A stretch of 64,000 nt of DNA from Clostridiales bacterium (GCA_015058215.1 SVCU01000010.1:456-64455); one strand, 5' to 3'; positions 23,700 through 35,055 are shown, numbered from the stretch's first letter. Program-made: numbers and translations. Notes: generated by a model from the sequence alone, not told the origin.

Positions 23700-23945
23700 C
23701 TATCTGTCCTCTTCCGGAAACTGCCTTCCCTGCCGGTCCGTATACGCGTTCTCCCTGTGGATCAGCTGTCCCACGGGCACGATCTCGAACCCCTTTTCCT
23801 GCAGGATCTTCAGTACCTTCGGAAGATATTCCTCCACGGTATCCGCATTGTTATGAAAGAGTATGATGTCGCCGGCTGCCGTATTCTCCGTGACCCGGGA
23901 AACGATCTGGTCTGCGGTGAGATTTTTCCAATCGAGACTGTCCCG
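23700..23945 (-). pseudogene. 3' segment of the split NodB polysaccharide deacetylase (pdaB/pdaA-like); no start codon in the current configuration
   Basis: My translation of the minus strand, directly after an in-frame TGA (23948-23946): RDSLDWKNLTADQIVSRVTENTAAGDIILFHNNADTVEEYLPKVLKILQEKGFEIVPVGQLIHRENAYTDRQGRQFPEEDR*. It carries NodB motif 4 (DxxDW) and motif 5 (ILFH). Confidence 0.85.
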
Positions 23946-23965
23946 TCATGAAACAGGAGAACCCC
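23921..23965. other. attL-type junction (host half-site / TC core / element half-site)
   Basis: GATTTTTCCAATCGAGACTG-TC-CCGTCATGAAACAGGAGAACCCC. The hexamer GTCCCG (23940-23945) recurs at 34543-34548. Confidence 0.75.
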
Positions 23966-24064
23966 CGCATAAAGTGAGGCAGAAACGGCACGGAACCGAA
24001 ACCATCGGCGTGAAGTATGGAAAAGACAGGATGCCGGTGCAAAGCAAGGTCAGGGAGAGAGTTT

Positions 24065-25531
24065 ATGGGAGAAATCGCTATTTATGCCAGACAATCCGTG
24101 GAAAGCAAAAACAGCCTTTCCATAGAGGGACAGATCCAGTTTTGCCGCCGCCTTGCAGGGGACGGCCCCGTAAAGGTCTACCGGGACAAAGGGTTTTCCG
24201 GAAAGAATACGGAGCGGCCCGCCTTCAAACGACTGCTGCAGGATATCAAAGCGGGCCGCATCGACCGCCTGTATGTCTACCGTTTGGACCGGTTTTCCCG
24301 TTCCGTGGCGGACTTCGGCAACCTGTGGCAGATGCTACAGCGTTACGGGGTGGAATTCGTTTCCGTCAGCGAAAACTTCGATACGTCCACTCCCATGGGA
24401 AGGGCCATGCTGCACATTGTGATGGCTTTTGCTCAGCTGGAGCGGGAAACCACAGCAGAGCGTGTGCGGGATAACTGCAGAGTGCGGGCCGCCGCAGGAG
24501 CCTGGCCCGGCGGCCCGCCTCCCTTCGGCTTCGATCTTGTGCGGAAGCCGGCAGGCCCGGGAGGGCCTGTCCTCTCCCTTCTCCAGCCCAATGAGAAAGC
24601 CTCTCTGGTGCTCCACATTTTCCGGGAATATGCCCGGCCGAGCTGCACGCTGGGCAGCCTGGGGCGGCAGCTTGCTGCCGCGGGGGCCGCAGGCCCCCGC
24701 CGGGCCTTTTGGACCTCTTCTGCCCTTTCTCGCGTTTTACATAATCCTATTTATGTTAAAGCGGATGAGCAAATTCGTCTTTATTACCTCACTTCAGGTA
24801 CCGAGATCCTTTCTCCGGAATCCGCCTTCGGCGGCACCTGCGGCTGCCTGCTGCAAGGCGGAAACGCCTTGAAAAATACCCATTCTCTTCGGGTCCTTCG
24901 CGTTCCCGGCATTGTGCCTGCGGACCTGTTTCTGGCCTGTCAGGAAAAACTCTCCCGAAACCGGAGTCTGGGCGGCAATGGCAGCGGTACCTCCACCTGG
25001 CTCAGCGGTCTCCTGAAATGTGCGGACTGCGGCTACAGCATGAAGGTGATCAAAGGAAAAAGCGGCCGCCATCTTGTCTGCAGCGGCCGCTACACCCCTA
25101 TGCGCTGCAGCGCCTCCACCACCGTCTCTCTGGATGATCTGGAAACCCGGGTCACAACCATTCTGCAGGAGCATCTTACCGCTCCTTCCGCCGCATCGTT
25201 TTCCCCGCTGCCTCCCGACCCTGCACTTCAGTTTCGTCTCGCGGAGCTGGACCGCCGCAGCCAGAAACTGCTGGAAGCCTTTTCCGAAGGCTCCGGACTC
25301 CCCCGCCGTCAGCTGGAACAGGCCCTTCAAACTCTGGAACAGTGCCGCAGAACGCTGCTGGACGGACGGGAATGCCATAGGCGATCCCCGGGCATTCCTG
25401 CCCCCTTTTCCACCCTTGCTTTTTCCGAAAAAAAGGAGCTGGCGGCCCGCTTCATCCGTCGCATCGACGTTGGCGCAAAAACCTGGGATATCTTGTTCAC
25501 GCAACTTGACTTTCCCGAGACGAAAAGCTAA
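24065..25531 (+). CDS. Large serine recombinase (SpoIVCA/SprA-like)
   Basis: MGEIAIYARQSVES (catalytic Ser), YVYRLDRFSRS and the AQLERE resolvase domain. Also a recombinase domain, the zinc ribbon CADCGYSM...CSGR...C, and a C-terminal coiled-coil region. Start at ATG 24065, after AGGGAGAG. Confidence 0.92.
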   Translation: MGEIAIYARQSVESKNSLSIEGQIQFCRRLAGDGPVKVYRDKGFSGKNTERPAFKRLLQDIKAGRIDRLYVYRLDRFSRSVADFGNLWQMLQRYGVEFVSVSENFDTSTPMGRAMLHIVMAFAQLERETTAERVRDNCRVRAAAGAWPGGPPPFGFDLVRKPAGPGGPVLSLLQPNEKASLVLHIFREYARPSCTLGSLGRQLAAAGAAGPRRAFWTSSALSRVLHNPIYVKADEQIRLYYLTSGTEILSPESAFGGTCGCLLQGGNALKNTHSLRVLRVPGIVPADLFLACQEKLSRNRSLGGNGSGTSTWLSGLLKCADCGYSMKVIKGKSGRHLVCSGRYTPMRCSASTTVSLDDLETRVTTILQEHLTAPSAASFSPLPPDPALQFRLAELDRRSQKLLEAFSEGSGLPRRQLEQALQTLEQCRRTLLDGRECHRRSPGIPAPFSTLAFSEKKELAARFIRRIDVGAKTWDILFTQLDFPETKS

Positions 25532-25606
25532 GATGGAGAGGAGAGTTTTGGAGGACTTTCCATGTACTTGGAGGTACCCATGGAAAAACAACACAAGGAG
25601 ACAATC

Positions 25607-33639: not shown

Positions 33640-33693
33640 GAGATCACCTTTCTTTTGGATCATTCTGGTGCGAAACAACTAAAACCTGGTTTG

Positions 33694-34419
33694 TCATTCT
33701 GCGGTGAAGCAGCTGACCAGTGCCGCTTCTTCCTGGTCGGTGAGGGGGCGGTAAGCGCCCTTTTCCAGGGTTTCATCCAGTTCCAGCGGCCCCATTTTGA
33801 GGCGCTTCAGGTAAGTGACAGTGGCCCCGCAGGCTTCAGCCATGCGCTTTACCTGGTGGTACTTGCCCTCCTGGATGGTGACCAGAGCTGCGTTCTCGGG
33901 AAGCAGCTCCAGCTTGGCGGGAAGGCACAGATAACCGCCATCAATTGTAAGACCGGCCGCGAACTTCTCCGCAGAGCCGTCGGCAAAGGCGCCGTCGTAT
34001 TCGATGTAGTAAAGCTTGTCCACATGGTTTTTGGGGGACAGGATCTTATGGGTCAGAGGGCCGTCGTTGGTGAGCAGCAAAAGCCCTTCGCTGTCCTTAT
34101 CCAGACGGCCGGCCGGAAACAGATCGAAGCTCTGCCAGTGATCGTCCAAAAGATCCAGCACCGTGGCCGCATGTCGATCCTCTGTCGCGGTCAGGTAACC
34201 GGCGGGTTTATGAAGCATCAGATAGACATACTTCTTGTAACGGATCTCCTGCCCGTTCATGGTGAGGCAGGCCGCCTCGGGGTCCAGTTTGAATTCCGGA
34301 CTTTTGACCGTAACGCCGTCCACGGCGAATTCCCCGCTTTTGATGCGGTTTTTCAGTTCTTTTCGGGTACCCATGCCCAGATTGGACAGCACTTTATCCA
34401 GACGTTCCAGCTTTGCCAC
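33694..34419 (-). CDS. rsuA: Pseudouridine synthase, RsuA/RluB family
   Basis: S4 domain (RLDKVLSNLG) and the catalytic GRLDKDSEGLLLLTNDG. Likely GTG start at 34419, 8 nt after AAGGAG. The ORF track starts at 34428. Confidence 0.9.
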   Translation of the reverse strand: MAKLERLDKVLSNLGMGTRKELKNRIKSGEFAVDGVTVKSPEFKLDPEAACLTMNGQEIRYKKYVYLMLHKPAGYLTATEDRHAATVLDLLDDHWQSFDLFPAGRLDKDSEGLLLLTNDGPLTHKILSPKNHVDKLYYIEYDGAFADGSAEKFAAGLTIDGGYLCLPAKLELLPENAALVTIQEGKYHQVKRMAEACGATVTYLKRLKMGPLELDETLEKGAYRPLTDQEEAALVSCFTAE

Positions 34420-34446
34420 GGGGCTCACTCCTTTACAATAATATAT

Positions 34447-35055
34447 TTATGGTAGTTCATTTATGTTTCCAGTTGCTGCATACCAGTATAGCAGATTTTC
34501 CCTTCCTTTGCAATTCCAATGGGTTTCTGCTGTTGCAGGACGGTCCCGACTCCACTGGATCACATGGTAGCCGCAGTCCGCTGCCGTATCCATCAGCGTA
34601 TTGCTGTAAGAACCGAAGGGCGGCCGGAACAGGTCCGGCTGCACCCCGGTCAGCTGCAGGATGGTTTCTCCGGCGGTTTCCAGTTCCCTGCGGATTTCGG
34701 CTCCGGACAGTTTCCCCAGATCCGGGTGCGTGGCGGAATGGTTGCCGATCTCATGGCCGGCAGCGGCGATGGTCTTCACATCCTCGGGAAATTTTTTCGC
34801 CCAGAAATCCACCAGAAAAAACGTGGTTTTCACATCGTATTCCTCCAGGATGGACAAGATGGCGGCGGTGTGCTCGTTTCCCCAGGCCGCGTCGAAACTG
34901 ATGGCGATCTTATTGTCCGGCCGCTCCACGGAATAGATGGGGATCTTTCGTTCCTCCGCAACTACACCGGTCAGGGTCACCGTACACCAGACGGCAGACA
35001 GTACGACGGCACAGGTCATGATCCGCAGGATCCATTTGTAATGTTTCATTCTCAC
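34447..35055 (-). CDS. 5' segment of the split NodB polysaccharide deacetylase (pdaB/pdaA-like), with a 31-codon element-encoded tail
   Basis: N-terminal TM anchor and NodB motifs 1-3 (ISFDAAWG, HEIGNHSATH, LFRPPFG). Host-derived codons end at ...GYHVIQWSRD (codon 171, 34545-34543). The frame then runs into element DNA to a stop at 34447. Confidence 0.85.
   Translation of the reverse strand: MRMKHYKWILRIMTCAVVLSAVWCTVTLTGVVAEERKIPIYSVERPDNKIAISFDAAWGNEHTAAILSILEEYDVKTTFFLVDFWAKKFPEDVKTIAAAGHEIGNHSATHPDLGKLSGAEIRRELETAGETILQLTGVQPDLFRPPFGSYSNTLMDTAADCGYHVIQWSRDRPATAETHWNCKGRENLLYWYAATGNINELP
34521..34567. other. attR-type junction (element half-site / TC core / host half-site)
   Basis: GGGTTTCTGCTGTTGCAGGACGG-TC-CCGACTCCACTGGATCACATGG. 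Confidence 0.75.

Follow-up and report, generated by a model that had tools for sequence, protein, structure and literature searches.

In a 64,000-nt stretch of a Clostridiales bacterium genome (GCA_015058215.1, SVCU01000010.1:456-64455; hereafter the window, with positions counted from its first nucleotide), a PdaB-like polysaccharide deacetylase gene, here called pda, is split into two in-frame halves by a 10.6-kb element that carries a large serine recombinase (LSR). The same gene is broken at the same codon in other Clostridia, beside related recombinases and at attachment (att) sites with the anatomy of serine-integrase sites, and its separated halves bear the mark of selection. Almost certainly this is a serine-integrase element lying in a gene that can be rebuilt. 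We also think it probable that the element is of the skin or gin type, that is, a gene-intervening element in a newly recognised target, and that it would be excised in the sporulating mother cell.

Both halves of pda lie on the minus strand, ~10.6 kb apart, with the gene broken at 34543 and 23945. The gene parts and att cores are:

34543–35055, minus strand: pda 5′ segment, 171 codons, GTG start at 35055 with an alternative ATG at 35049
34447–34542, minus strand: read-through tail of the truncated 5′ open reading frame (ORF), 31 unrelated, element-encoded codons and a stop
23700–23945, minus strand: pda 3′ segment, frame opening right after a TGA, stop at 23700–23702
34543–34548: attL core, GTCCCG on the plus strand; inferred crossover GA (minus strand) at 34545–34544
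23940–23945: attR core, GTCCCG on the plus strand; GA (minus strand) at 23942–23941

The 5′ segment encodes a signal or transmembrane anchor and NodB motifs 1–3, and its C-terminal end reads ...GYHVIQWSRD. The 3′ segment, for which the junction provides no start codon, supplies motifs 4–5 and reads RD-SLDWKNLTADQIVSRV...ILFHNN... (RD-SLDWKN...), also written RD-SLDWKNLTADQIV...ILFHNN..., through to the stop. The hexamer CGGGAC (minus strand) is common to both junctions, and joining the halves there yields an uninterrupted ORF of 250 codons. A tblastn search of the whole window with the joined 250 amino acids placed residues 1–171 and 170–250 at these two locations only. A first reading of this sequence, which we call the original prediction, had described the 5′ segment with its ...GYHVIQWSRD end, 31 further codons and stop, the 3′ frame after a TGA, the shared GTCCCG and the joined 250-codon ORF, and all of these were reproduced at the same positions. 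The junctions are also found on other contigs. A separate 18.7-kb JGI contig (L001) has an identical recombinase and 3′ fragment, i.e., the same attR side, and an ENA contig from another project’s sample (L098) has the same attL/5′ junction with a few single-nucleotide polymorphisms; its 31-codon read-through tail (P0001) likewise differs by few substitutions.

The joined product is a NodB/CE4 polysaccharide deacetylase with the five NodB motifs divided over the two halves. It contains a complete Polysacc_deac_1 domain (Pfam PF01522, E 1.7e-36), and its top NCBIfam match is TIGR02764 PdaB over model positions 2–191 of 191 (207.9 bits), ahead of YlxY (158) and PdaA (120). On a pda hidden Markov model (HMM) the 5′ segment matches positions 7–174 and the 3′ segment positions 174–252. 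Conserved columns of the joined protein include D55, H106, H110, R144, D171, D174, W175, and H200. Motif 1 is FDAAWG; by our reading of the alignment, Ala replaces the second Asp of the canonical TFDD throughout the group. The resemblance to PdaB/PdaA sporulation deacetylases proposed at the outset thus stands as far as the best match, which is PdaB from end to end, but the score lies under the equivalog cutoff of TIGR02764, and the gene is therefore named PdaB-like rather than PdaB. In Bacillus subtilis, pdaB (spoVIE) belongs to the mother-cell sigmaE regulon and is required for efficient sporulation (PMC4703394), and three polysaccharide deacetylases are under sigmaE control in Clostridioides difficile (PMC3789822). 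The host of the window carries further sporulation genes, as had been noted: SpoIIP (6347–7420) and the GPR spore protease (7359–8270) both score over their NCBIfam cutoffs.

A search for uninterrupted homologues colinear over the junction, as the original prediction had suggested, recovered ten (~250 amino acids, 54–64% identity), which align without gaps across IQWS[V/R]DSLDWK. Solved NodB structures align over the junction in the same way (e.g., 7y51_A, residues 17–202). Both halves align with the same intact homologues and so belong to one gene, not to two paralogues. The break was correctly assigned to NodB motif 4, with the crossover dinucleotide GA inside the motif-4 Asp codon, V-D/S-L-D-W (the slash marks the break). 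The genomic setting agrees. The window flanks form the conserved priA...pknB-rsgA-rpe / plsX-rnc-smc-ftsY region, and the closest intact homologues on usable contigs, P0008 (64% identity) and P0018 (59%), are directly followed by a 204–205-amino-acid SSB-like gene, plsX, rnc (RNase III), and smc, the same genes as those found after the 3′ fragment of the window. The two halves are therefore a single positional orthologue of these genes, parted by 10.6 kb of additional DNA.

The element and its recombinase occupy the following positions:

23943–34545: intervening element, 10,603 bp measured from one crossover position to its equivalent
24065–25531, plus strand: large serine recombinase, 488 amino acids, MGEIAIYARQS...; an in-frame ATG at 24017 adds 16 codons

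An LSR within the insert had been predicted, and the protein proved to have the full set of Resolvase (E 2.9e-40), Recombinase (PF07508), and Zn_ribbon_recom (PF13408) domains in Pfam, the last two above their cutoffs. Its gene begins ~120 bp from the attR/3′-fragment junction, with transcription directed away from the latter. The recombinase thus sits at the element's edge by the 3′ fragment, and the skin-like layout anticipated for this locus is the one described for skin elements (bioRxiv 10.1101/2022.02.25.481979). The Y7-A8-R9-Q10-S11 block (Y-x-R-x-S, with the nucleophilic Ser) is invariant among 18 recombinase homologues; the gene call for an identical protein (P0121) likewise gives 488 amino acids, and the PHROG category is integrase. 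Its relationship to characterised recombinases is distant: the best NCBIfam match, XisF, scores 120 bits where the cutoff is 375, and SprA/YokA reaches 41 bits. As predicted for a serine integrase, the enzyme would recombine attP with attB and, together with a recombination directionality factor (RDF), attL with attR.

Joining the ends of the element produces an attP of the form GGGGGTTCTCCTGTTTCATGACGG-GA-CCGTCCTGCAACAGCAGAAACCCA, in which 19 of 24 positions around GA are dyad-symmetric; one native position in the whole window reaches at least 17/24. The rebuilt attB of the window is less symmetric (11/23 around GA). The same holds over 16 elements (the window and 15 others), whose attP dyads score 11–22/24, against ~6 by chance, and whose attB sites score 9–13/23. 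An attP more symmetric than attB and a 2-bp crossover are the expected site anatomy of a serine integrase, for which the lack of long terminal repeats beyond the 6-bp core is also expected. Excision from the window is predicted to leave the junctions GAGACTGTCCCGACTCC (attB) and GGACGGTCCCGTCATG (attP), centred on ...CCAGTGGAGTCGGGACAGTCTCGATTGG... and ...TTTCATGACGGGACCGTCCTGCAAC..., respectively. The attB and attP junction strings given in the original prediction were correct; of the join it had set at GTCCCG, the shared 6 bp stand, and the crossover is better placed at the GA within them.

The split is not peculiar to the window. The recombinase has relatives by the thousand (477–490 amino acids, ~50–55% identity). 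One genome per GTDB species was scanned with a recombinase profile, and the best 80 loci, of >586 relatives in these genomes, were searched with the pda HMM. Fragments of pda adjoin the recombinase in 52 of these 80 loci, all broken at HMM positions ~172–176, and an intact pda beside the recombinase was found in none of the 80. The figure of 52 is a lower bound because some of the 28 negatives have an element of the positive type but the sequence runs out. Hosts include Oscillospiraceae, Lachnospiraceae, Acutalibacteraceae, Christensenella (Christensenellales), Anaerotignum, Caproicibacter, Agathobacter, relatives, and named isolates, and the architecture is present in isolates and in a complete genome. 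Cultured candidate carriers are Bengtsoniella intestinalis BP47G, Pseudoflavonifractor intestinihominis CLA-AP-H29, Anaerotignum lactatifermentans An390, and Clostridium sp. D33t1_170424_F3. In an unrelated gut bacterium (L002), for example, a 5′ fragment ending in PIQWDV at the break is followed by a 6.5-kb insert, with cargo different from that of the window, and by a recombinase next to the 3′ fragment ...DSLDWK.

Where both halves are visible, inserts measure ~2.4 to 16.4 kb. From one element to the next the cargo is unrelated (amidase-like, IlvA/RidA-like, ATPase/nuclease-like by eye, LysR/MatE), and the recombinase lies at either element end and in either orientation. Aligned junctions have the form ...CAGTGGGATGTGGA, then element, and element, then GA[TC]AGTCTGGACTGG; in longer form, ...ATCCAGTGGGATGTGGA, then element, and element, then GA[TC]AGTCTGGACTGGAA. 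All sites have just two base pairs in common, the GA of the Asp codon; on the side of the element, the arms form conserved inverted repeats (TTTCCAACYGYTGC ... GCAACAG..GGAAA).

A gene that is broken for good should decay. Among 34 distinct 3′ fragments, all are open to the C-terminal stop, one of them with a frameshifted tail, and the motif-5 His is kept in all but one. Between pairs of split-bearing species, the ratio of nonsynonymous to synonymous substitution rates (dN/dS) of the 3′ fragments is 0.03–0.12. For the closest pair, L054 and L045, dS is 0.35 for the 3′ fragment versus 0.37 for the recombinase, which fits an element inherited from the common ancestor; other species pairs show signs of element transfer. 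The species represented by L002 has the split form only, at ≥97% identity (274 member sequences), and its sister lineage, at 92%, has an intact pda between the same neighbours. When changes are polarised by means of an outgroup, 17 synonymous and 11 nonsynonymous ones fall on the split branch versus 16 and 10 on the intact sister branch, and the split branch departs from neutrality (binomial p ~1e-4). Judged by these substitution patterns, the split halves are evidently under purifying selection. Because the 3′ fragments are untranslatable alone yet conserved, the simplest reading is that pda is still expressed and needs rejoining.

Evidence on timing comes from the region between the att core and the recombinase, which holds a promoter candidate:

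23946–23975, plus strand: sigmaE-like promoter candidate, TCATGAA-N15-CATAAAGT, ~90 nt upstream of the recombinase start

The −10 element of this candidate lies at 23968–23975, and its −35 element is directly adjacent to the att core. A sigma70-type promoter was not found in window positions 23000–24200. The motif applied was ZHATAXX-N14/15-CATACAHT, with at least 6/7 and 6/8 matches and CATA required; this is the B. subtilis sigmaE consensus. Over the 300 nt that precede the recombinase, it is present in sense orientation at 30 of 82 loci, the window among them, and in antisense orientation at 0 of 82; 1.8% of random windows contain it. It usually stands at a fixed distance of ~160–180 nt from the recombinase. 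In C. difficile, sigmaE promoters likewise have ATA in the −35 element, and their −10 element is one that sigmaK uses too (PMC3789822). At least 34 relatives also have a conserved ORF of 36–45 amino acids between promoter and recombinase (e.g., L002:9873-10004), with the pattern M-x-I-K/T-H/N-T-H/Y ... R ... RRC-x-LLL. We regard this micro-ORF as a candidate directionality or accessory factor. From the promoter motif and the likely role of the target, we infer that excision would take place in the mother cell under sigmaE.

The sequence shows that an LSR element integrated by attP × attB recombination at the GA of the motif-4 Asp codon, leaving attL and attR, a truncated 5′ ORF and an untranslatable 3′ part. 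For what follows we hypothesize this course of events. During sporulation the recombinase would be transcribed from the sigmaE-type promoter beside attR and would join attL with attR, freeing the 10.6-kb element as a circle. The 250-codon pda would be restored only in the terminally differentiated mother cell, and its co-transcription with the downstream SSB-like gene would probably be restored too. The forespore chromosome would keep the element, which would thus be inherited.

Several results weigh against this mechanism. All copies of the gene of the window species found to date are split. No attB or attP excision product was seen, one degenerate attL/attR/attB/attP pattern giving 0 matches in public metagenome contigs; the pattern does match both window junctions, and the scan says nothing either way because integrated junctions, too, gave 0 matches (the source evidently lies outside the collection). 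No counterpart of the micro-ORF was found in the whole window (hmmsearch best E 0.64), where its position, 24017–24064, holds only the 16-codon in-frame extension of the recombinase. If the micro-ORF is an RDF, the window copy may excise poorly, and no RDF was found in the window. The sigmaE-like consensus and spacing were tuned after seeing examples, and the related loci scored with it are not independent. Upstream of pda itself the motif occurs in 3 of 28 loci versus 1 on the antisense strand, and it is absent there from the window and from the intact orthologues. The PdaB score of 207.9 bits falls short of the 237.4-bit equivalog cutoff. Finally, some members are 90–93% identical in DNA across species and so have been recently mobile, which means that the purifying signal could partly predate insertion.

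The first alternative to be considered is that pda merely offers a conserved codon as a safe attB to an integrative, possibly mobilizable element, which would excise for transfer or stochastically and repair the gene incidentally. Conserved coding sites are common targets of LSR elements (bioRxiv 10.1101/2021.11.05.467528), and the near-identical elements in different species, the placement of distant members (L083, L084) beside Mob-type relaxases (by eye), and the occurrence of the recombinase at either end and orientation, which suggests many independent lineages, would all suit such an element. However, genes for transfer, replication, or phage functions are absent from the window element, the promoter motif beside its recombinase is of sigmaE rather than sigma70 type, and vegetative cells would lose pda without harm, as they would the targets of all proven sporulation-intervening elements. 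We consider this alternative unlikely in itself, and it is compatible with excision in the mother cell, since SPbeta does both (PMC4191935).

Plain insertional inactivation would make pda a dead gene in this lineage and its intact-looking halves the sign of a recent insertion. It would account for the exclusively split copies of the window species, for the missing micro-ORF in the window and for L011, which has frameshifts in both halves, and it would expect no excision junction, as in the metagenome-contig scan that missed the integrated junctions as well. It does not sit easily with both halves being intact in the window and in nearly all of the 34 distinct split genes, with the low dN/dS of 3′ fragments that cannot be translated, with a split branch no more relaxed than its intact sister or with the split form alone across the 274 sequences of the L002 species, a poor fit with a deleterious sporulation-gene knockout. 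We judge it quite improbable.

An assembly artefact, in which a chimeric contig falsely parts the halves of one gene, can be dismissed even though the window is from a metagenome-type assembly and a close relative has a mosaic contig (L094), given the attR and the polymorphic attL of the other-sample contigs, the integrase-type symmetry of the junctions and the same architecture in 52 other genomes.

Sporulation-specific rebuilding is known for sigK (skin), spsM (SPbeta), spoVFB (vfbin), spoVR (vrin), gerE (gin), and yabG (yin) (PMC4191935, PMC5595907, PMC10747680, PMC5025042). In style, the window element is closest to gin of Bacillus cereus ATCC 10987 (GirC and GirX; PMC5595907), which likewise is non-phage, lies in a small mother-cell sporulation gene, has a short shared core, and has its target ORF rebuilt by a recombinase. 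The gin target, gerE, is a transcription factor gene in Bacilli, whereas the window target is a cell-wall deacetylase in Clostridia; gin has three recombinase genes and a proven accessory factor, whereas the window element has one LSR and metabolic cargo, with no accessory factor found; and gin excision is demonstrated, whereas that of the window element is predicted from sequence.

Skin elements in sigK (B. subtilis SpoIVCA; C. difficile CD1231 with the RDF CD1234; PMC5025042) place the LSR at the edge by the 3′ fragment, as in the window. They range from 2.6 to 48 kb with only the recombinase in common (bioRxiv 10.1101/2022.02.25.481979), the pda elements from 2.4 to >16 kb, and both vary in cargo and orientation. 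SigmaE controls the skin recombinase in B. subtilis (spoIVCA) and in C. difficile the RDF, not the recombinase (PMC5025042); the parallel here is the sigmaE-like motif. The recombinase of the window element, unlike that of skin, is only distantly related to characterised ones, and relatives of the window element have a conserved upstream micro-ORF, with none described for skin. Because pda is not a regulator, its excision would not gate a whole regulon, unlike skin in sigK.

SPbeta in spsM (SprA/SprB; PMC4191935, PMC5499854) is similar in being a serine-integrase element in a spore-envelope polysaccharide gene rebuilt in the mother cell. It is, however, an active 134-kb prophage with a sigmaE/K-controlled RDF, whereas the window element is without phage genes and its family is nearly absent from viral contigs. 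Also similar is yin in yabG of Clostridium botulinum (PMC10747680), which is clostridial, uses a serine recombinase and circularises on excision, but it is prophage-like and reported as unique to one strain, whereas the pda-splitting family is present in at least 52 species-level genomes. In the full-text literature, subscription-only papers aside, we found no report of pda, pdaB, or any polysaccharide deacetylase as the target of an intervening element.

The remainder of the window element is cargo, arranged as follows:

25562–26344, plus strand: nitrite/sulfite-reductase-domain protein (Pfam NIR_SIR, NIR_SIR_ferr)
26367–29251, plus strand: three-gene ATP-binding cassette (ABC) uptake system of Peripla_BP_2 binding protein, FecCD permease, and ABC ATPase (Pfam; gene calls of L001)
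29274–30821, plus strand: siroheme-synthase-like fusion, NAD_binding_7 + Sirohm_synth_M + TP_methylase (Pfam)
30867–31808, minus strand: ORF of 313 amino acids in a low-GC patch (36–43% GC)
32206–32760, minus strand: Nudix hydrolase (profile match)
32812–33678, minus strand: putative lipoprotein of 288 amino acids
33694–34428, minus strand: RsuA-type pseudouridine synthase with its own sigma70-like promoter, TTGCAA-17-TATACT, at 34513–34485 by the element edge

The 313-amino-acid ORF has no match in Pfam, NCBIfam, or PHROGs. With a 400-bp AT-rich intergenic stretch it makes up a region (30867–32200) of 36–43% GC, against ~57–60% around it, which may be a secondary acquisition within the element. 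Save for the low-GC patch at 31200–32200, the composition of the element is not distinct from that of its flanks and therefore neither supports nor refutes a foreign origin. A phage origin was rejected. Phage, replication, and transfer genes were absent among the element proteins in Pfam, NCBIfam, and PHROGs searches, PHROGs returning the integrase only, and 2.9 million viral contigs contain almost no members of the recombinase family (6 weak loci). One relative there, at 44%, is on a 4.9-kb contig with neither a pda fragment nor an attP-like dyad.

Side observations were made on the architecture of related elements. Elements in different GTDB species (L005, L007, and L008 vs L006) share 90–93% nucleotide identity over 2.6–6.5 kb including the recombinase, which indicates, on sequence identity, recent horizontal spread of at least one element sublineage. 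Two loci (L047:3750-13540 and L035:13976-21235) have pda interrupted twice, at V-D/S and near HMM positions 60–63 in the motif-1 region, and the second breaks adjoin different large serine recombinases of 519 or 513 amino acids (L047:6880-8439; L035:14343-15884, minus strand). In L051 (7438-11883) the 5′ and 3′ halves of pda flank the recombinase on opposite strands; this layout would rejoin by inversion, not deletion, unless the metagenome-assembled genome is misassembled. The smallest elements (~2.4–2.6 kb; L061:7869-8732, L058:9002-9712) consist of the recombinase and one ORF only, and no other ORF is common to the minimal elements. By eye we take this ORF (MKIWIDAGHGGTDSGA...) to resemble an Amidase_3/CwlD-type N-acetylmuramoyl-L-alanine amidase, which would presumably be cortex-related.

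Two genes adjoin pda in the window, the first of them given here in full:

23076–23690, minus strand: SSB-like flank gene with two OB folds (NCBIfam PRK05813, 251 bits, above cutoff)

It begins 9 nt past the pda stop, and the pda-ssb pairing is kept in the intact orthologues. No sigma70-like promoter was found between attR and this gene (23076–23951); given this and the 9-nt gap, excision may be needed before the gene can be transcribed, from the pda promoter. The C. difficile ssb CD3235 is reported to be sigmaE-dependent (PMC3789822). On the other side, a 366-amino-acid multi-pass membrane protein gene (35052–36152), without a Pfam or NCBIfam match, overlaps the pda start by 4 nt (GTGA). Contig L094 (JGI 3300018878, 1227 bp) is 95.5% identical to window 34724–35280 over 557 nt, covering this upstream gene and the first ~110 pda codons. 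Beyond these it has no DNA similarity to the window; its pda (P0002) is intact, and the start of its ssb is divergent. The contig arose either by natural recombination in a close relative or through chimeric assembly, and P0002, being such a mosaic, was rejected as a close intact orthologue or empty site.

What is new here is a cell-wall enzyme gene as the target; the kind of element is already known. The known rebuilding targets are few, and most were described in Bacilli or in single strains. Gut communities are dominated by Oscillospiraceae, Lachnospiraceae, Christensenellales, and relatives, which transmit by spores. More tentatively, and with somewhat less than even confidence, we suggest that pda may be a programmed-rearrangement locus across gut and environmental Clostridia, from which a large, unrecognised family of recombinases with sigmaE-type promoters would remove elements of 2.4 to >16 kb in the mother cell. 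A split pda should not be scored in annotation as a pseudogene or as loss of sporulation, and the set of att sites provides natural attB/attP pairs with a GA core for recombinase engineering. The finding also raises the question of why metabolic cargo is tolerated inside a gene needed only in a cell about to die. If this proposal is true, the micro-ORF, which accompanies most of these recombinases, could be a new kind of directionality factor, and somatic elimination of varied, often metabolic, cargo would be common in clostridial sporulation rather than a curiosity of model strains.

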